Shown in pieces: positions 11,892 through 53,444 of a DNA stretch of 64,000 bases (its first letter is position 1; each line of letters starts with the position of its first letter). Made by a program: the position numbers and the translations under genes. The stretch comes from a virus. The notes under the pieces are model-generated. The model saw nothing but the letters and a program-made list of their open reading frames with translations, did no database searches and was not told the origin of the DNA. The stretch is taken from positions 1 to 64,000 of the IMG/VR virus record IMGVR_UViG_3300025324_000011. The stretch is one strand, 5' to 3'.

Positions 11892-12470
11892 TTGTCGCTC
11901 CTCAATCCGTCGATGCTGATATGCCAGTCTTTTCTTCTCTGCGGTGGCCGACTTCACGCTCTAACCGATCCACGAATGCCTCGGCGTCAGCATCGCCAGT
12001 CAGTTCTCGCCATTGCGTTTCGTCAACGGTCCGATAGAGTTCGTCAAGATCATGCATCTTGCGCAATGTTAAGTCGCTCATCTCATCTTCCCTCCTCAAC
12101 CTCGCGGTGCCATCCAGCCAACCGCTTGGCTTCGCAGAATGCCTCGCTCAACGTCATGCGTGTCGCCCTAGCCGCATCCTCTTGCGTGGTAGCCCGTTTC
12201 ACCATAACTCCACATTCTTCTCGTACAACAACCCACCGCCCTGAAATTTCATGCATCGAAGATCTCAATTTCCGTCTCCTCTCCTGAGGAATGGCATATC
12301 GACAAAGGATCGCTGGATCGTCGCTGCTGTTTTGTCTAATACCGTCTCCCAAAATCCAATCTCCCACGCGTCAAAGAGCCCAGCTTCGGAATGCGGATTA
12401 TCTATCTGTTCATCGCTATTCATCCAATCGAGACCAGCTACTCTGCCCTGCGCCATCGCTTCTTCGGTTG

Positions 12471-16492: not shown

Positions 16493-16551
16493 GCTTGACA
16501 ACTGCGCCATGATTAGGCTATGATATGCATAGTTGCTAGGCGGTGTCAAGC
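16493..16551. promoter_or_regulatory. bidirectional sigma70 promoter with overlapping -10 elements
   Basis: + strand TTGACA-18-TATGAT and - strand TTGACA-18-TATCAT; GCTTGACA...TGTCAAGC inverted ends. Confidence 0.7.
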
Positions 16552-23303: not shown

Positions 23304-23957
23304 TTATAGCATGACGCATGCATCTCCGGCGACAAGGAACAAGCAGGACTCGCGCCCCTTGAGTCGCGGAGTTGCACCTGATTTGACTGTTTTCTTGATG
23401 TTCTCGAGATCCTCTGGACATCGCCATTTTAGGGCGCCGATCAGGGCTTCCCTGAGATCTGGCTTGATGGCTTCCTCTACCAAATCAGCCACTTCTGAGG
23501 CGAGCGCCATCTTCAGTTTCTTGACCGCCTCATCCGGCGCTTTCTTTAGAATAACTTCGTGCCACGCATCAAACGAAGCGCTGACGAAAAATGGGATCGA
23601 CGGATCTTCGCGCAGAGCATCGCAAAGTCTTGAGTAAAACTCTCGCAATTGCCGCACGGGAGCCGCCAAGAGCGGAAGCAGGTGCTCTTCTGCCTCGAAT
23701 TCGCAGCGGTCAATTTCATCCTTGGAATGAGCTACAGCAAGTCCGCGGATAATCGGAATCCATTTCGCGACGACAGCATCTATATCCATTATAGTTCTTT
23801 TCCTGTGACTTGGGTTATCGATCGCATAGCCGATCCATGATTGGATAGTTCTGTATGTCCATCGTTTGGCGAGACCATCTGGCGCGATCTGCATTCGTTT
23901 CGCAAGCTGGACTATTTCCCAGATCGCCAAGGAAGCTTCGCGCACGCCAAGGCTCAA
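23304..23957 (-). CDS. hypothetical protein (true start may be downstream, MDIDAV)
   Basis: Long ORF within the operon. Confidence 0.5.
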   Translation of the reverse strand: MSLGVREASLAIWEIVQLAKRMQIAPDGLAKRWTYRTIQSWIGYAIDNPSHRKRTIMDIDAVVAKWIPIIRGLAVAHSKDEIDRCEFEAEEHLLPLLAAPVRQLREFYSRLCDALREDPSIPFFVSASFDAWHEVILKKAPDEAVKKLKMALASEVADLVEEAIKPDLREALIGALKWRCPEDLENIKKTVKSGATPRLKGRESCLFLVAGDACVML

Positions 23958-25234
23958 AGCGATTCCTCCGCTGAATCCTCTCCATCGCTCCGATGAATTC
24001 CGAATTTCTGGACAATCTTGATACCGCTGATCTCTTCGAGAATTCTCTCGCGGCGTTCGATCTGATCTTTATCCTTCTTGTAGAAGTGCTTCAGGAATTT
24101 CTCCGCATTGGAGCGGAGTAGTCCGACAATCTTGAACAATCCGGGTAATTGAGCCTGAGCTGTCTCTAGGTCCGGCGCCTTTGTACGATCGATCCAGATT
24201 TGCGCCAGTCGCTCAGCGGCGTTGTCCTTGAGCGTTGTTTGTTCCTTGGCGATTGATCCGATCATCATGCCGTCAAGCATGATCGGGGATTCTGCGGTTG
24301 CGATCCTCAGCGGCCTCTCCAGTGATTTCGCCGCCGCCATGACAACGGAATAGGTTCGAGCAAGCTCGTCTCGTGTCGTCATGTCGTAGGAGCTTCCCAG
24401 GTAGTCTTTCGCTGGATCGCAAGCATGCAAGTAGGGACACCCGAAACACCGAGGCCCAGGAGAGGCTGGCCGCAATCCATCGGGTCCCTTCTGTTTTTCG
24501 CGAGCCTCTACCTCAGAGATTATATCGCGTTTCCATTGCTCCAGGACGGCGGCGCCCTCCGGCGTGTTAGGGAGAATCGTCAATTCGTACTCCCGCTGCA
24601 ATCGAAAGTTCACCACCACCAAACGCAGCACCTCATGCCCCTTGCCCCAGAGAATCCAAGAAAGGACCGCCTGGATCTTCCGTTGAATCGAGCGCAATTC
24701 GGGCTCGCGCGCCGACCATGCGCTTTTATAATCCTTTACTAGGAGCACGGGGCCGCCTGCATCACCATCTTCCTCATCCCACCACGCGGGCTCGCGCGTA
24801 CCTACGGCATCAACGAGAGCCCGGAGCCATGCCCCGCGACCATACGGACACGGAATCCAATCGCAATTGACCGCAATACCTATCTCGTATTTGAGATCGT
24901 AGGCCAGGGGTTTGGCGGATTGATAGGATAGGGCGAGGTCGCGTCCCTGCCAGACGAGATCCGAGGGAAGCGGCGGCTCCATTTCGCCGAGATAGTTGCG
25001 GCCATCGCGGATCAATCCCTCGCAGGTGCGCTGCGATACTTCCTCAACTTCCTCGGGCTCCAAGTAGCGCTTTCGTTCGGCGGACGCCTTGCCCAAATCC
25101 TCCAAAACGGCATGCGCGCTCACGCCGACCGCGAATATCTCCCGATCGTAGGGGACTTTCGCCTCCATATGGTCAAGCGCCCGCGGACAATTGCGCTCGG
25201 CGAGACGGAGAGAGGTTGAGGACCAGCCGCTCAT
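23954..25234 (-). CDS. PD-(D/E)XK RecB/Cas4-like exonuclease
   Basis: S.TSL...CPR, G..AH, VDAV..VKDYKS, CFGCPYLHAC (four-Cys Fe-S pattern). Confidence 0.8.
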   Translation of the reverse strand: MSGWSSTSLRLAERNCPRALDHMEAKVPYDREIFAVGVSAHAVLEDLGKASAERKRYLEPEEVEEVSQRTCEGLIRDGRNYLGEMEPPLPSDLVWQGRDLALSYQSAKPLAYDLKYEIGIAVNCDWIPCPYGRGAWLRALVDAVGTREPAWWDEEDGDAGGPVLLVKDYKSAWSAREPELRSIQRKIQAVLSWILWGKGHEVLRLVVVNFRLQREYELTILPNTPEGAAVLEQWKRDIISEVEAREKQKGPDGLRPASPGPRCFGCPYLHACDPAKDYLGSSYDMTTRDELARTYSVVMAAAKSLERPLRIATAESPIMLDGMMIGSIAKEQTTLKDNAAERLAQIWIDRTKAPDLETAQAQLPGLFKIVGLLRSNAEKFLKHFYKKDKDQIERRERILEEISGIKIVQKFGIHRSDGEDSAEESL

Positions 25235-26134: not shown

Positions 26135-26883
26135 CTGATCTCTCCCTCGCGCATGGTTAGAACTTTCTCATTCCAAACAACAACCACTCGTACCCTCTGC
26201 GCGCATGAGTTCGCGGATTCCAGATTCCCGATTGAAGCACAAAAACCCACCAGACTCCATATCGCTGCCCGAGAAACGCCAACAAATAGGGTGAAAGTCT
26301 TGCAAGCGAACACCCCGGTTCCACCCCTGAGTACCGCGATATGAAAGCTCGGTGCGCGACCAAACGAAACCGATCTCCTTGCCGCCGAGGAAGACTTGAT
26401 AAGCAGTCCTTCCCCAGGATGGCGGATTGATCTTTTTGAGCTTGAGGTTCATACCATTCCCTTGACTCTCTCGCATCCTGCCAGGCACCACCGCCCGAAG
26501 AGGGATATCATCTCCCCGATTCCCGTTGCCAGCGGTAGCCGATTTGTTAGCGCAGCGACTGGCAATCAACTGCGGTTTTGTCGACTTCAAATAACGACGG
26601 CAACCGGCAGGATGTCAAAGAGCCAAGAAATGCCCGCGACCTAGTCTCGGTGGTCGCCGCGCGGATCAAGCTGTCCCTCGGTGCCGAAGAAATCCTCATT
26701 GAGCAGATTGTCAAGCAGCACGTTCAGCTCTTCGGCATAAATTTGAGAAAAGCCATCCTTATCCTTCTTCTTCTCTGCGTCGGACTGTTCTGCCATCGCG
26801 CGAAGAACTCTGGATACTGTTGTTTTTGTTACTTTCCGATACTTTGGCATTAGTTCCTCCGGTTCCAGTCGCCAACGTTATTT

Positions 26884-27130
26884 TTTGAAAGCATCCCAGA
26901 GAGGACGGCTAGCGCAGCTTTTCCGGTGGGGCTTTGGCTTGCGCCCACTGCGGAGAGCAATCCCGCAATCTCTGAGAGAATTGCGGCGAAGCTAAGCGCT
27001 TCCATTTAAGACAGTCCGCTAGCGACTCTTTCCGTACCTCCCCGAGCGGCCAGCTCAGGGGGCCTAGATCCCGCTCTGCGCCCGGAACCGGCGAAGACGA
27101 ACCGCCCTCACTGCGACGCTTTCAAAGATC
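26884..27130 (-). ncRNA. putative structured RNA 2 (boxA-like start, ~27 bp closing stem)
   Basis: ORF-free region; 27126-27100 pairs with 26910-26884 using three G-U pairs only on the minus strand; internal hairpins. Confidence 0.6.
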
Positions 27131-27146
27131 GACAAATTACTTTTCC

Positions 27147-27369
27147 AGTTCGGCGCTCACGGTGTGCGCGCTCAAAGTCTCCCCCCTCGGTCCGGCGACT
27201 CTGCGGAAGGCCGCCTCGCCTTCGGGGGTTGAGAGAGCAAGGAGCGTATTCCCCTACCCGCCACGAGCCGCAGATTCCACCACTCGCAGCCTCTCGGGGC
27301 TTTTTCGCGTCGCCGTCGCCGTTGACGCGCGCACCGTCAATGCCGAACTCTTCAAGGATTTCAAAGAAC
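27147..27369 (-). ncRNA. putative structured RNA 1 (boxA-like motif then long closing stem)
   Basis: GTTCTTTGAAA at 27369-27359; 27349-27322 pairs with 27175-27147; several inner hairpins. Confidence 0.55.
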
Positions 27370-27391
27370 CGCCTCTCCGTTTCTAGAGGAG

Positions 27392-27420
27392 ACTATACGG
27401 CAAAACTTCAGCTCTGTCAA
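27392..27420 (-). promoter_or_regulatory. leftward sigma70 promoter
   Basis: TTGACA-17-TATAGT. Confidence 0.8.
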
Positions 27421-27478
27421 GTAGCCCCACAGAACAGCGCTATCTAGAGGACGCGCGGCCACCTCGGATCGTGCCAGC

Positions 27479-27507
27479 TTGACATGACGGCATGTCGATG
27501 CTATGGT
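27479..27507 (+). promoter_or_regulatory. rightward sigma70 promoter (probably leaderless mRNA)
   Basis: TTGACA-17-TATGGT with an ATG ~8 nt downstream. Confidence 0.7.
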
Positions 27508-28645
27508 ATGCGGCATGAGCAAGCGAGACGCAACTACCGAACTGGTCGCCTGGTGTTCTTCTGCTCGCACCAGGGCGGCGAGGACCGCCATGAGCTTTGA
27601 TCCCTACTGCGAGACCTGCCGCTCTGCAAGCCCCGCAGCCTCCTACCCTTGTACCCGTCTCCGCGGAATGGTCGCCGCGGTATCCGCCCGGATTATCTCG
27701 GCGGCGGGTCTCGCAGTGGGGATCAAAGCGCCTCTAGCGAGATACCGGAGATGTCATCGTGAGGAAACCCATGGCTGACCGCTCCCTACTACACCTCTCG
27801 CAGTTGCACGACTTCGTGGCATTTGCAAGGGGTCTCGGCTACGTGGAGGAGCCCACCAAGGGGCTTTACGAGGTGCTGCGGCTTCGGCACAGGACGCTAC
27901 CAGTGCTAATCTACCACCGCCGCACCGGGGCAGACCACGCCTCGGCCGAGGGAGATGGTCTTCGGCTCGTCCGGGCATTTTTGCGCAGCAAAAAAGAAAC
28001 CACGGTATGACAATCACGCATGACGCCCTTGTCAAGATTGCCGGCCGGTGGCTCAAAACGACTGTCGGCTGCACGGTTGTCCTGACTGAGCTGGTGACGA
28101 CGGCGCAGGAGGGTGATGCCATCGAAAAACATCTCGGTGATTTATCTCTGGGCAGGGAGGAATAAATGACGGATGAAGAACTCGCCGCGTTACAATCCGA
28201 GGTATGTGCGGCCGAAAGCGTCCATGCGGAGATGCGAGCGAGACTGGATACCGAGCTTCTCCGGCGCGCCCAGGAAGCGTGCCTCCTCAAGGTGGGCGAC
28301 ATCGTCGGTGCATTAAACTACAAACAAAAGCCCGATTATGTTATCACTCGCATCGGCATATCATATGGTAGGGTCGCCGTTTACGGCCGCCGCATCCTCA
28401 AATCTGGAGATCTCGGGAAGGCGGAAAGAAAGATCTGGTGGAAAGTAGAAAAGATTGGATACCGAGGGATTCTCGGTGGCGTGTAGTTTGACGACGCGAC
28501 TTCAACGGGAGCAAACCGCCCAGAATGGGACGGCGGCTCAGGGAGACATAGAGAATGCAATGGTTAGAGCAGCACTCGCTGATCCAATGATCCGCGCACG
28601 CTGGCTTGCAAGACACAGAGCAATGGTAGAGAGGGCGGAGAAATT

Positions 28646-31028: not shown

Positions 31029-32048
31029 ATGGGCGGTTCAAGCTACTCTCACGATGCATACTCAGCACGTGCGGCGTTTCGCGTTGCAAGCGCTACTCCA
31101 GTGTTCAAGCATGACTCAGACGTCCGCACGGGTAAGGCCGCTGCCGCCGTGCATGCCAACCTGAATCCCTATAACGTCAAACTGCGGGAAAGCCGGGATT
31201 CCGAAGAGCATGCAACAACGATCCCGATCGGCATTCTACTCGACACCACTGGCAGTATGGCTGAGGTGCCGAAAATCATCGAAGCGCGTTTGCCGCGTCT
31301 CATGGGATCATTTCTCGACGACAAGGCGAGCGGGAAGCGGTATCTCGGCGATGGATATCCCGCCATCCTCATCGGCGCAGTAGATGATTACGATGCTCAA
31401 ATCCGATGCGGCTACTCGCCGTCCGCTTCTGGATGTCTTCAGGTCGGACAATTCGAGAGCGGCATTGAAATCGACAACGATCTAGAGCGCCTGTGGCTCA
31501 CTGGTCACGGAGGGGGCACTTACGAGGAATCATATCAGCTCGGCATCTACTTCTTCGCTCGCCATACAGCACATGATCACTTCGAGAAGCGCGGCAGAAA
31601 GGGGTATCTATTCATCATCGGAGATGAGCACGCCTACGGAACGGTTGCCGCCTCAGAGGTCAAGGATGTTATCGGCGACACCATACAAGCAGATATTCCG
31701 CTCGCAAGCATCCTCGCTGAGGCTGGCCGCTTGTATCACACATTCTTTATCCTCCCGAATTTGACGCAACATTACGGAGACGGTAATCTCCGCGCCTACT
31801 GGATGAAACTGATCGGTCAACAAAACGTGATTCTCTTGGACGATCCAGAGAAGGTCTGCGAAGCAATCGTCTCGGCGGTTGCTCTCTGCGAGAGGCACGT
31901 CGGGATTGCGGATCTAGTTGGTGACGGCGTTGCCTCTGGAATCGAGAATGCGCTGGTGCCGCTGTCTGCATCTACGGCAGTTGCGCGCTTCAGTGCTGAC
32001 GCCCTGCCAGTCATAGATGGCGAAGGCGGCGAGATCGATCGCCTATGA
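31029..32048 (+). CDS. vWA (MIDAS) domain protein
   Basis: LLDTTGSM MIDAS, LQVGQFES, GGG..ESY, FIIGDE. Confidence 0.8.
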   Translation: MGGSSYSHDAYSARAAFRVASATPVFKHDSDVRTGKAAAAVHANLNPYNVKLRESRDSEEHATTIPIGILLDTTGSMAEVPKIIEARLPRLMGSFLDDKASGKRYLGDGYPAILIGAVDDYDAQIRCGYSPSASGCLQVGQFESGIEIDNDLERLWLTGHGGGTYEESYQLGIYFFARHTAHDHFEKRGRKGYLFIIGDEHAYGTVAASEVKDVIGDTIQADIPLASILAEAGRLYHTFFILPNLTQHYGDGNLRAYWMKLIGQQNVILLDDPEKVCEAIVSAVALCERHVGIADLVGDGVASGIENALVPLSASTAVARFSADALPVIDGEGGEIDRL

Positions 32049-33250
32049 TCGCCTATGCGGTCGCCGGAATGGCCTTCGGTGACGAAGGCAAGGGAGTAGT
32101 AACGGATTATCTATCCCGTCGCTTCGCAGCAGACATAGTGATCCGTTTCAACGGCGGCTCGCAGGCTCGGCACAACGTCATAACGCCATCGGGCATTCAT
32201 CATACCTTTGCTCAGTTCGGCGCCGGAACGCTGGCCGGCGCCGCGACTTTTCTTTCTCGCTTTATGCTAGTGGAACCGTGCGCGCTCTTGCATGAAGCAG
32301 CGACGCTCGCGCGCAAGGGAATCGCGGCCCCGCTTTCTCGAATGACGATTGACCCGGAATGCGTCATCGTCACGCCGTTCCATCGTTACGCAAACCGTCT
32401 TCGCGAAACAGCGCGCGGAAGCATGCGCCACGGATCAGTTGGACAGGGGATAGGCGAGGCGCGCTCCGATGAAATTGATGGATTAGCGTTACGTATAAAG
32501 GATCTATCAGAGAATCCGCGAGCCATATTGTCTCGTATTCAAGAAAAGAAGCTAGCAGAACTTGAGGCGATTTCTGGGGCTGACGCGAATCTCTATGAAG
32601 CGATTCGCAAAGAGAACACAGAATCACTGATTTCTGTCTATAGTCTCATGCTCCAGGCCGTTACGATCTCTCCGGCGCGGAGGGCGCTGAGTTCCGCAAG
32701 ACAAGCTATTTTTGAAGGAGCGCAGGGTGTGCTCTTGGATGAGATTCACGGCTATGCTCCCTACAACTCATGGACCGATTGCACATTCGGTAACGCGGTA
32801 ACTATTGCGGATGAGATGGGCTGGTCTCTGAATAAAGTAGGAGTTTTTCGTTCTTACTTCACGCGCCATGGAGCTGGACCGTTCGCCACGGAAGATAGCT
32901 CCCTTCGCGCGCCAGAGCCCCACAATGGAGCACATCCATGGATGGGGGAATTTCGCTGCGGTCATTTCGACATGATGGCAGCGCAATATTCCGCGAGAAT
33001 TGCGCGTCCCGACGCATTAGCCGTCACGCACATGGATCGCCGCCCATCCAATAAAGTTGCGATTGAATACAATGGCGGATTACCGAGGTATAAGGATGAA
33101 CCGCATTTGATCCGGGCAATGAATCAATCGCTCGGCGTTGAAATCGAATATCAATTCTTCGGCCCTACCGCCTCATACGGCAGGGCATTGCGAGACGAGA
33201 GAAGGCGCCGCCTTGATTACGCTGGACAAGCGATCCATTCAAACGCTTGA
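32045..33250 (+). CDS. adenylosuccinate synthetase-like protein (divergent)
   Basis: FGDEGKG, RFNGGSQARH, FEGAQGVLLD, TRHGAGPF, THMD. Confidence 0.85.
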   Translation: MIAYAVAGMAFGDEGKGVVTDYLSRRFAADIVIRFNGGSQARHNVITPSGIHHTFAQFGAGTLAGAATFLSRFMLVEPCALLHEAATLARKGIAAPLSRMTIDPECVIVTPFHRYANRLRETARGSMRHGSVGQGIGEARSDEIDGLALRIKDLSENPRAILSRIQEKKLAELEAISGADANLYEAIRKENTESLISVYSLMLQAVTISPARRALSSARQAIFEGAQGVLLDEIHGYAPYNSWTDCTFGNAVTIADEMGWSLNKVGVFRSYFTRHGAGPFATEDSSLRAPEPHNGAHPWMGEFRCGHFDMMAAQYSARIARPDALAVTHMDRRPSNKVAIEYNGGLPRYKDEPHLIRAMNQSLGVEIEYQFFGPTASYGRALRDERRRRLDYAGQAIHSNA

Positions 33251-46167: not shown

Positions 46168-46290
46168 TTCGTTGTTTCCTCCTTTGGAACAACCTTATCA
46201 AAATGCGCTCAGCATGTCAAGGGGAACGCGATTAGCAAAACATCGGTGGGGGGCTTGACAAGCTCCGCCGCTATGTGCAAGACTAGGTCC

Positions 46291-46479
46291 ATGAGCGAGT
46301 CTGGCACACTCCAATTGCCCCCGCCGCGGACGATCCGCACGCGCCGCGTGCTGGTTGCTCTCACGATTGAGGAGCATGCGGCGCTGTCGGACTTGGCGGC
46401 ACAACGAAGCGAGCCCCCTGCGACCGTCGCGCGGGCATTGATCGTGGCCGCCCTGCATGCGCTAAGGACAGAACGATGA
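46291..46479 (+). CDS. small RHH-like regulator (probably leaderless)
   Basis: RTRRVLVALTIEEHAAL..PATVARALI; TTGACA upstream. Confidence 0.55.
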   Translation: MSESGTLQLPPPRTIRTRRVLVALTIEEHAALSDLAAQRSEPPATVARALIVAALHALRTER

Positions 46480-46509
46480 TCCTGGACGTGGCGAAGGTGT
46501 CGGTTACTT

Positions 46510-46797
46510 CTCGGGGAAGCGGAAGCGGGTCGGCTTCGTCCGTCACCACAATGACCCGGTGCGCGGCCGGCGCCGCAGCGCGACGCGGCCGGCTGCCTTG
46601 CGGTAATCCTTCGAGCCGCTCCCAGGTTTCCTTCTTGTCGGCTCCGCCCGATAGGGCAACCTCCCATGTATCCGGCGTTTCCAGCTCGCCGGCGACGAGC
46701 CGCTTCCAGGCGCTGCTTGAAGGGCGCGGGCGGGAGCGAATGTTCCCGTATCGATTCCTCGCCGAGCTCTGCCTGCTCTTCATTCTTCGGCTTCGCT
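46510..46797 (-). pseudogene. scrambled TROVE/Ro60 gene remnant
   Basis: AKPKNEEQAEL, WKRLVAGELETPDTWEVALSGGADKKETWERL and HRVIVVTDE on the minus strand; ALLEGRGRERMFPYRFLA inserted inverted. Confidence 0.7.
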
Positions 46798-47359
46798 CCT
46801 ATCATGGCCTGCCACTTGTGACGCACCGCAATGAATCTGAGATCGCACCGCAGAACAGCGTTTGCGCTGGATACGCGCTTATCCGAGGAAGGAAGAGGAA
46901 ATCTAAATCTGCGCATGCTGGCGATTCGCGGCGAGGTTGATCTGCGATCTATTCAATGCGACGAACCGCTGCATCCAAGCTTCGAGGCGATGATTGCGGC
47001 CAATCCGCCGCATCGAAAGGGGAGGCGCAGAAACGCCTCGTGTCCTGTAAATCAGCCTATCGATGTTCCACGCTAAACTTACTCCGCTTGCTTTCTCTTG
47101 TGCTTTCTGCTAGGATGTGCAGCATGAACAACGGATGCCCGCATTGTAAGTATAGAGGGATTCGCTTTTTCCTGAATTCCGGGATGTGGAGAGACATTCT
47201 TCAGGAAAGGGGGCGAGCTGTTTTTTATTGCCCGAACTGCAAGGAATTGCTGCCGAAGGACGGAGGCGTCGCTAGCACGGAGCATATCGGAGTAGTTCTC
47301 ACGATCATTGCCGCCCTTGCCATTTTCCTTGTCATCGCTTTCATCATAGCGAGTCTCTA

Positions 47360-47698
47360 ATGGCGCATCCACACCCAAAATCACGCAGGGTAGAGCTTCC
47401 CGGCGAATGGCCCGGGACAATCACCATGACCCCGGATGGACGGCTGCGGATCTACCTTGGTCGTGGTCATGGAGCGGCAAATAGCGCTGGCTGGACATGG
47501 CTCGGTAGATTTCTCGCCTGGGCTTCGACGGGCGTAAGGTTGCCGACCGAGATCCATGTCCATCACATGGACAATGATCACTTGAATATCCGAGAAGAAA
47601 ACAGGATGCACCTCCATCGTTCCGAGCATTCGCGGCTGCATGCGGCAACTAGGACTCGCAACGAGAAAGGGCAATTCGCCGTCGAGGAGGCAGAATGA
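47360..47698 (+). CDS. HNH endonuclease-like protein
   Basis: HVHHMDNDHLNIREEN...EHSRLH; RNEKGQF tail. Confidence 0.7.
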   Translation: MAHPHPKSRRVELPGEWPGTITMTPDGRLRIYLGRGHGAANSAGWTWLGRFLAWASTGVRLPTEIHVHHMDNDHLNIREENRMHLHRSEHSRLHAATRTRNEKGQFAVEEAE

Positions 47699-48918
47699 AA
47701 CTCCTTTTCGTAATCGTATACATACTATGGATAGTATGCGGTGCGGTTGCGACTATCTCCGGGTTTCTCGGCATCGCTCTCATGATCGGCGCCAACGATC
47801 AACCGTTGACAATGGGAAGCGATTCATTCGTTATTCTGATCTTTCTCGGATTGGTCTTCGGCGTTGCATTTATCGTCCTTGCGTCAGGCATCGAGCGGCT
47901 CGGAAGGGAGATCAGTTCAGGCTATAGAAATGTCGGTCGCCTGCTGGCGATCATGGTCCTATCTCTTGTCTTCGCCGCAGCAACCGGCTCAAGACGAGAA
48001 GAGAAGAAATGCTATTTCAGCGTTGTCGCCAAGATATGCTACAAGCTTGGGCAACTGCGTAGATTCGGCGACACCATCGGCTGTTGCGTTTACAGTGCAT
48101 GGGCAAGCCGCCCCATCTATTATGAATTTTGTCATTTTGATACGAAGACTAGGCGATGGATCTATACTCGCTGATCAGCGCACCACCAAGTAAGCGCGTC
48201 GGCCGCGGCAAGCGCATGATGCTCACGGTACCGCAAGATGTCATTCCGCGCTTTGTGGCGCAGGCAGCCAAGTGGGGATGCAGGCCGGCAACGGCCGTTC
48301 TAAACCTCGCGCTCGGAGCATTGCGAGCGATCGAAGATCAAGAGATGCGCTTGTCACACAATCACCCGCTCAGGGCGGATGGTTATGACCTCGGTTCGAA
48401 TGTGCCGTTTGAAGTGGCCTTGGCGGCGTCCTACAATCCTCGTTGTGAGGCGTTCTGCGGTTGGGAGATAGGACCGTACCCCTGCACCAGGGAGCGTGGC
48501 CACGGTGGCGCTCACGTGGCGCGTGCGGCTGGCGGTGTTATCGTGGCAGCATGGGATGAAGAAGGAGGGCAGGGAGCATGAAGGCGCTCAGGCGTTGTTT
48601 TCTGTTTTTTGGCTTAACTGTTGCGATAATCTCTCCACCGAAAGATCCGTGGCGAAACCTAGCAGTGGCCGCCATTTTTGTGTACGCTGCTTGTCACTGG
48701 CGCGAGGAGTAACGGTCATGGGCGGAACTGCGCTAGATCCACGGAAAGAGGAAGCATCGCAGGGCAGCAAATCCGCCAGCAATATCGGATGCGCGGCGAA
48801 AATCGCAATCTTCCTAATCTTGCTTTCCATGGCTCGCATGAATTGCTATGACCATTTGTCGATCTATCCAGCTTGGATGCGAGCGGTCTGTAGTTGCCTA
48901 TTTGCGGGCTAGGATGAG

Positions 48919-53372: not shown

Positions 53373-53444
53373 TGGGGCCAGCAGGGATCGAACCTGCGAC
53401 CATCCGCTTAAGAGGCGGCAGCTCTACCGCTGAGCTATGGCCCC
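53373..53444 (-). tRNA. tRNA-Lys(CTT), 3' CCA not encoded
   Basis: GGGGCCA acceptor stem, D arm GCTC/GAGC, anticodon loop CTCTTAA, T loop TTCGATC; followed by CTT. Confidence 0.92.

Follow-up and report, generated by a model that had tools for sequence, protein, structure and literature searches.

The early control region

This analysis concerns a set of boxA-like motifs and long-range helices that surrounds a pair of divergent early promoters in the virus record IMGVR_UViG_3300025324_000011 of IMG/VR. The record is 96,984 bp long, approximately 95% complete, and 56% in G+C; its first 64,000 nucleotides (nt) are the stretch analysed here and are referred to as the window. It represents an uncultured tailed phage from soil, with genes for a terminase, a sliding-clamp homologue, a helicase, methylases, a 5'-3' exonuclease, a PurA-like enzyme, a CCA-adding enzyme and one transfer RNA (tRNA). 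The best terminase matches in cultured phages are only about 25% identical, which indicates the absence of a close cultured relative. Two soil DNA metagenomes, which may be the source of the record, carry the stretch almost letter for letter, and a third carries only a small part of it, over the gene for a protein of 69 amino acids (aa). The sequencing runs listed as holding the stretch include no RNA datasets.

Gene direction switches at about 27.4 kb, from leftward below this position to rightward beyond it, and two sigma-70-like promoters diverge in this region (Table 1). The leftward one, TTGACA-17-TATAGT, had been recognized in a preliminary description of the region and was located at 27420-27392 of the minus strand. 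Transcription from it is predicted to start at about 27385-27383, which would place the first boxA copy approximately 15 nt into the RNA. The leader region that follows has the highest G+C content of the window. The preliminary description had noted a structured leader on the leftward side; this leader is real, but the structured region is larger than was seen then, with a further helix (L3) on the leftward transcript and another (R1) on the rightward one.

Table 1. Features of the divergent early region, in window coordinates
Feature	Positions	Strand	Description
Leftward early promoter	27392..27420	-	TTGACA-17-TATAGT; near-consensus sigma-70, 11/12 matches
Rightward early promoter	27479..27507	+	TTGACA-17-TATGGT with extended TG; 10/12 matches; diverges from the leftward promoter
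boxA1	27359..27369	-	GTTCTTTGAAA (= GUUCUUUGAAA); unpaired relative to the long helix; ends 10 nt before the L1 5' arm
boxA2	27120..27130	-	GATCTTTGAAA (= GAUCUUUGAAA); last 7 nt paired as the outermost part of the L2 helix
boxA3	26613..26623	-	GCTCTTTGACA (= GCUCUUUGACA); inside the L3 5' arm, in a 190-nt intergenic spacer
L1	27147..27349; arms 27349-27327 / 27169-27147	-	20 pairs, ~155 nt enclosed; from fold and genome scan
L2	26884..27126; arms 27126-27080 / 26932-26884	-	Interrupted helix of 40 pairs including 4 G-U, ~147 nt enclosed
L3	26453..26634	-	32 pairs including 7 G-U; between the first and second left-operon genes
R1	27594..27729	+	~30 contiguous pairs, ~78 nt enclosed; rightward 5' leader
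Candidate 51-codon open reading frame	27005-26853 (26850 with stop)	-	Starts in the L2 interior and runs through the 3' arm
First clear left-operon gene	26641..26850	-	69 aa; wide family of uncharacterised small proteins
Second left-operon gene	26168..26452	-	94 aa; probable start ATG 26452
First right-operon gene	27771..28010	+	79 aa; orphan, no homologue but itself

Four clustered long-range helices

The whole genome was scanned for inverted repeats with arms of at least 20 nt that are at least 80% complementary and 31-450 nt apart. Exactly four such repeats are present, and all of them lie inside 1.27 kb (26461-27729). In 60 dinucleotide-preserving shuffles of the genome, the mean number of repeats is 0.48 and the maximum is two, and three never fall within 1.3 kb. 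The repeat scan of a 93-kb relative (G001) returned only scattered weak background repeats.

L1 and L2 bear out the closing pairing of domain 1 and the long closing stem of domain 2 proposed in the preliminary description, the latter as an interrupted helix. The 3' arm of L3 reaches the AUG at 26452 and covers the ribosome-binding region of the gene that starts there, and both mismatches in R1 are G-U pairs on the plus strand. Relative to dinucleotide shuffles, the z scores of the predicted folds are -2.98 for the L1 domain, -3.94 for the L2 domain, -3.16 for the whole left leader, -3.40 for L3, and -4.55 for R1 on the plus strand (vs -2.95 on the minus strand).

The helix interiors and the candidate reading frame

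When the closing arms are removed, the interiors on their own strands score -0.81 (L1), -1.10 (L2), -0.64 (L3) and +0.55 (R1), compared with -1.0 to +1.2 for coding controls. Folding better than shuffled sequence, which had been named beforehand as a check, is thus found for the whole leader and for both domains, but not for the interiors alone. The same division applies to the inner hairpins described previously: they are present in the fold, but the interiors that hold them are no more stable than shuffles. The proposed UCUC-AA-CCCCC/GGGGG-GAGA pseudoknot appears as a plain nested hairpin in the minimum-energy fold. With Rfam 15, the sole match in the window at gathering score is the tRNA at 53373-53444; at expectation values (E) up to 10, the region 26500-27800 gives only chance-level matches (E ≥ 1.5), in agreement with the earlier failure to assign it to a known RNA class. 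The four interiors are also unrelated to one another. Because the interiors resemble shuffles, lack Rfam matches and are mutually unrelated, the feature is best regarded as a long-range helix with a boxA rather than as an ornate RNA.

These results bear directly on the suggestion that the domains are a new class of discrete non-coding RNAs, excised at their closing helices like pre-ribosomal RNA and acting in trans, for example as decoys or scaffolds. Such a suggestion would agree with the excision-ready architecture, the strong promoter, the G+C content (the highest in the window), and the lack of convincing genes across most of the 530 nt. However, the interiors are mutually unrelated and fold like shuffled sequence, and there is no Rfam match at E = 10 and no homologue in any collection searched. 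Two discrete, richly structured RNAs, as first described, are therefore not upheld, since only the closing helices exceed chance and no Rfam match, nor any homologue for covariation, is available; we consider a trans-acting RNA class improbable.

It had also been stated that about 530 nt after the promoter lack a credible gene. This agrees with most of the frames, whose codon scores are near or below zero, but not with the 51-codon frame of Table 1, which is coding-like: it scores 0.16 per codon, where in-frame windows have a mean of 0.17 and off-frame windows -0.26. Part of the leader may accordingly be coding, through this frame and perhaps a UUG-started frame of 36 codons from within boxA1, in which case the helices would be ordinary mRNA structure. 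The gene caller of the source predicts the 51-codon frame as a gene, its stop overlaps the next start (TAATG), and GGAGAGG stands 7 nt upstream of the UUG at 27364. On the other hand, the AUG at 27005 lacks a visible Shine-Dalgarno sequence, the only homologue of the 51-codon frame among 5.8 billion clusters is itself, the remaining frames score near zero or below, and coding would leave four clustered long-range helices and three boxA copies unexplained. As an account of the region, it has a small probability.

Strand bias of the helices

An inverted repeat is inherently symmetric, and the four elements might act as DNA, whether as binding or looping sites of a regulator, as recombination or inversion sites, as an origin structure, or as remnants of miniature transposons. 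They cluster at the main regulatory region, the left promoter is flanked by CCTCTAG words, and the opposite strands beat shuffles as well (z = -2.46, -2.95 and -3.87), because any inverted repeat must.

RNA and DNA pairing differ in the treatment of transition mismatches, which were counted per strand after the four helices had been extended by a strand-neutral score. Fifteen are G-U pairs on the predicted transcribed strand, vs four on the opposite strand (one-sided P = 0.010), and base composition explains only a slight bias of this kind. The bias tracks the direction of the two promoters: the wobble pairs of R1 go with the plus-strand promoter, and those of L2 and L3 with the minus-strand promoter. 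The excess favours selection on RNA pairing, though it is not overwhelming.

Several other observations speak against action as DNA. Apart from the boxA word, the arms of the four elements are dissimilar, and the elements are thus not duplicates of a single mobile element. The distribution of the R1 arm also speaks against a family of mobile elements: its 17 matches in 185,579 species genomes are single ones at chance level, and IMG/VR contains no match. Neither the shared repeats and interior nor the host-genome copies that mark miniature inverted-repeat elements of the Correia or ERIC kind were found. The two metagenomes that hold the phage contain no inversion or deletion joints, and the region is the most G+C-rich of the window, unlike an unwinding element. 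A role as DNA is thus hardly probable.

Three copies of a boxA-like motif

Two boxA-like 11-mers had been reported, and both are present at the positions claimed, 27369-27359 and 27130-27120. A third, which had been missed, lies within L3. The three copies follow the pattern G-N-UCUUUGA-N-A, in which nine of the 11 positions are invariant; position 2 is U, A and C, position 10 is A, A and C, and position 8 is G throughout. R1 carries only the degenerate motif GAGCUUUGAUC and no consensus boxA.

The consensus GYTCTTTAANA has been used to find functional boxA elements in gamma-proteobacteria (PMC5725501). boxA1, boxA2 and boxA3 match it at 10, 9 and 10 of 11 positions. The two positions at which the copies vary, 2 and 10, are those at which GYTCTTTAANA is degenerate (PMC5725501). 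According to a 2026 paper, the rrn operons of Bacillus subtilis carry a conserved boxA-like AUGAUCUUUGAAA, which B. subtilis NusB binds, as seen by nuclear magnetic resonance, and boxA2 (GAUCUUUGAAA) is identical to the core of this consensus (PMC13753749). The resemblance to boxA noted in the preliminary description is therefore strengthened, both by this identity and by an independent third copy at the equivalent place on a third helix.

The word TCTTTGAMA occurs six times in the genome, both strands included. Three of the occurrences fall within 760 nt here, on the transcribed strand, and each lies at or just before a 5' arm; the number expected in that stretch is 0.024 (P ~ 2 × 10-6, by our Poisson estimate). 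The other boxA-like matches that were checked elsewhere in the genome are either within coding sequence or on the strand opposite a gene, with one, at 12381, inside a small open reading frame (ORF). When the boxA-containing arm is scored against its best downstream partner, L3 reaches 27 and L2 reaches 19, whereas the score never exceeds 14 among 39 unrelated viral loci, which are IMG/VR contigs sharing the extended boxA word by chance. Pattern scans of IMG/VR gave 72 matches to the double boxA and 39 to the extended word, all at chance level and with no partner helix. The rrn leaders of two bacteria that were reached via such chance loci contain no UCUUUGA, which says nothing about the host.

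Against a role of these words in Nus factor recruitment stands the alternative that the helices are RNase III or translational-control structures that work without Nus factors, as in the lambda N leader or the T7 early mRNAs. In that case, the shared CUUUGA word would have arisen by chance, be bound by a phage protein, or belong to the recognition context of an RNase. It is consistent with this alternative that the helices alone carry the folding signal, that R1 is the best helix and yet has no consensus boxA, that the L3 arm and the small hairpin following R1 each overlie a ribosome-binding site, and that boxA2 and boxA3 are mostly paired in the final fold. However, three words that are invariant at 9/11 positions, equal a NusB-binding consensus and occupy the same place on their helices are hard to obtain by chance, and their variation is limited to two positions known to be tolerant. 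This alternative is, in our estimation, unlikely, though less so than the others considered here.

Search for related leaders

No homologous leader was found in any collection searched. Comparison of the DNA with 50,697 phage records gave no match. A PD-(D/E)XK nuclease encoded at 23954-25234 has 47 protein relatives with at most 56% identity, the closest being in Logan contigs; eight IMG/VR loci with nuclease relatives have no upstream synteny, boxA or leader. Three whole records (G001, G006 and G002; 65-68% G+C) have only a few genes in common with the phage. The terminase search yielded two loci, namely the 48-kb G006, which lacks the early region, and a short contig of 4.5 kb. A 230-aa neighbour has one relative, on a metagenome contig with dense ORFs and no leader, and a 140-aa neighbouring frame has no relatives.

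In 27 IMG/VR loci with homologues of the 69-aa gene, neither a boxA-like word nor a comparable long-range repeat is present upstream, which shows that the leader is not conserved together with this gene. A search of species-genome contigs with the nuclease profile found no prophage relative, and for this reason no host is assigned.

Comparison with known systems

In ribosomal RNA (rRNA) operons, (boxB)-boxA-boxC elements are combined with leader-trailer helices that are cut by RNase III, and the antitermination complex consists of NusA, NusB, NusE, NusG, SuhB and S4. The combination of boxA with a leader-trailer helix is regarded as a speciality of these operons. In the rrn operons of Escherichia coli, boxA follows the promoter and recurs before the 23S gene, and the leader strand of a helix of 27-44 bp begins 18-19 nt later (PMC10250234). 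According to the current model, the RNA anchored at boxA loops out until the trailer emerges and pairs with the leader (PMC10250234).

The phage region is similar in several respects. It has a boxA shortly downstream of a strong sigma-70 promoter and another ahead of the next helix, in a region taken as untranslated; the boxA is of the Gram-positive type (GAUCUUUGAAA); and it directly precedes or fuses with the 5' strand of a long-range helix of 20-40 bp. The 5' arm begins 10 nt after boxA1 and overlaps boxA2 and boxA3, and the helices (20, 40 and 32 pairs) are all longer than the 17 bp used as the lower bound for such a module. The differences are equally plain. The phage helices enclose 80-190 nt of unremarkable sequence instead of an rRNA or tRNA gene (Rfam at E up to 10; interior z of -0.6 to -1.1); three cassettes fall within 900 nt, in two of which boxA is part of the helix; and the cassettes lead into protein-coding phage genes. 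Because no RNA gene is enclosed, the arrangement is called a mimic or variant of the rrn module and not a member of it.

In the lambda nutL/N leader, boxA and boxB are followed by an RNase III-sensitive hairpin that controls the translation of N. The phage resembles it in that boxA stands close to the 5' end of an early leftward transcript whose untranslated leader is long, RNase III is likely to cut a long helix there, and a structure is predicted to mask the downstream ribosome-binding site. It differs in that boxA is present three times and is joined to long-range helices, that no N-like protein is identifiable, and that the two phages are unrelated. In the predicted folds there is no boxB-type hairpin after boxA, nor any short hairpin within about 20 nt after any copy, as a lambdoid nut site would have. 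The nut- or put-like antiterminator offered as one reading in the preliminary description is not established, given the lack of a boxB-type hairpin and the absence of such a leader elsewhere in the wide family of the first gene.

The RNase III sites of the T7 and T3 early regions are a third parallel. They are double-stranded structures in a transcript of the host polymerase, placed between promoter and first gene and between early genes, as in the present phage, and the structures here may likewise be expected to split and stabilize the early mRNAs. However, each T7 site is a local hairpin of about 60 nt that contains internal loops, whereas here the strands are 80-200 nt apart and led by boxA.

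Outside rRNA operons, boxA recruits Nus factors to the transcripts of the E. coli suhB 5' untranslated region and of CRISPR array leaders, and such a leader boxA can alter access to the Shine-Dalgarno sequence or the action of Rho (PMC5725501; PMC13753749). Unlike the phage leaders, those of suhB and CRISPR arrays belong to cellular genes and have a single boxA and no long-range helix partner. What sets the phage layout apart is that four short cassettes accompany a single pair of divergent promoters and that boxA is incorporated into the helix.

Proposed role of the leaders

Considering these similarities, the phage probably borrows the logic of host rRNA transcription and processing. The reading that we prefer, with a probability estimated at roughly 0.4, is that the leaders are rrn-style cassettes in which boxA is combined with a leader-trailer helix; these would recruit Nus factors, would probably be cleaved by RNase III, and in two cases would mask a ribosome-binding site. 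The promoters, motifs, helices, their clustering and their strand bias are observed features of the sequence, while Nus loading, RNase III cutting and translational control are drawn from the analogy to known systems, and every functional step in this single orphan phage is an inference.

The early transcripts would carry four cassettes resembling the flanks of rRNA, in each of which a 5' strand pairs with a 3' strand 80-200 nt later to form a helix of 20-40 bp; on the leftward transcript, a boxA would start every cassette. Upon the emergence of boxA, host NusB/S10 and then the other Nus factors may be expected to load, as they do on rrn operons, making transcription of the long untranslated leader fast and resistant to termination. 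The 5' strand would be held near the RNA exit until its partner emerges, and the long-range helix would then form. Closed helices of this length could serve as substrates of RNase III, and cutting would trim the leader and split the early message. Because L3 and the hairpin after R1 appear to hide the ribosome-binding site of the next gene, the formation or cleavage of the helix would set translation.

A number of findings weigh against this proposal. In the final fold, boxA2 and boxA3 are themselves taken up into base pairs; this would evict NusB/S10 and is hard to reconcile with antitermination that persists along the long arm. With 0.34 G and 0.26 C, the RNA of the left leader is G-rich and a poor Rho substrate, and the more C-rich right leader has no consensus boxA, so that an anti-Rho rationale is not clean. 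The helix of an rrn operon encloses an RNA gene, while those of the phage enclose nothing recognizable (no Rfam family, tRNA or excess stability). The strand evidence is not uniform, as L1 alone has its wobble excess on the wrong strand (1 vs 2) and L3 has a slightly better z on the opposite strand (-3.87 vs -3.40). The predicted start falls within a hairpin upstream of boxA1, so this hairpin may be absent from the RNA. Finally, none of the related sequences searched carries the leader.

The pairing of boxA may itself be functional. Each cassette might be a self-resetting Nus switch, in which NusB/S10 occupy boxA while the loop is transcribed and the trailer then acts as an 'anti-boxA' that strips off the factors and closes the helix, but we give this version only a slender chance. 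In this version, the helix so closed would either block the ribosome-binding site that follows or become a target of RNase III. Since S10 is a ribosomal protein, the balance between boxA-bound and closed forms would report the state of host ribosome synthesis. If such a switch exists, the phage could set its early gene expression by host ribosome synthesis, without an N-like protein.

Outside the lambdoid phages, there is, to our knowledge, hardly any documentation of phages that use host Nus factors. Three cassettes before and between the first early genes, with no N protein, would mean that the host machinery can be hijacked by RNA sequence alone, if the proposed role of the leaders is correct. 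The looping-out model of long-range helix formation could then also be studied on substrates of about 200 nt, compared with 1.5-3 kb for pre-rRNAs.

Neighbouring genes and other observations in the window

The family of the 69-aa protein consists of proteins of 60-70 aa (197 representatives at E up to 10-3) whose C-terminal DFFGTEGQxDPRGDHRD is invariant and whose basic N-terminus varies, and it occurs in phages of 27-68% G+C. Searches of Pfam, PHROG, PDB and a protein atlas gave no name for its function. For the second left gene, a start at TTG 26590 is less likely, as the longer frame would cross L3 and the upstream extension has a codon score of -0.01.

On the right, the GAGG Shine-Dalgarno sequence of the 79-aa gene is paired, in the predicted fold, in a small hairpin directly 3' of R1. 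A minus-strand ORF of 182 codons at 27757-28302 has a codon score of -0.22 and is almost certainly no gene; the actual small genes there are on the plus strand (27771-28010, 28007-28165 and 28166-28486). In the second soil metagenome, the contigs split into minor and major variants near 27584 and 27614 (approximate positions), with depths of about 4-5 vs 50-64. The variant site A27614 lies in the 5' arm of R1 and pairs with 27709, where no partner change is seen.

Three of the four CCTCTAGM words of the window lie in this region, at 27382-27389 (-), 27443-27450 (-) and 27731-27738 (+). Two of them bracket the left promoter, one upstream of the -35 element and one over the predicted start, and the third directly follows R1. 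The total count in the window is not above chance, and the clustering alone is suggestive; the words could serve as an operator to which an early repressor binds.

A second divergent pair of sigma-70-like promoters, with 11/12 matches each, is found at 16495 (+) and 16549 (-). It fronts oppositely oriented RNA-repair genes (for the CCA-adding enzyme and an RlaP-like protein) together with leftward genes, and its leaders are short and have no long helices. An adenylosuccinate-synthetase homologue is encoded at 32045-33250 (+; Pfam E 2.8 × 10-56) and is a candidate PurZ-type enzyme for 2-aminoadenine DNA.

A retron msr-msd was considered and dismissed, no reverse transcriptase being seen among the ORFs scanned. 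A Y RNA with Ro60 was likewise set aside, as there is no Pfam TROVE match on 46209-46916 and no Rfam Y-RNA match. The G+C-rich segment 46411-46764 has about 80% DNA identity to pieces of the distant relative G001 (46747-48013), which far exceeds that of the remaining genome. The order of these pieces is changed in G001 and one is inverted, and the overlying ORFs have no Pfam match. The segment could represent an element conserved as RNA or as DNA, or else a gene that has been scrambled.

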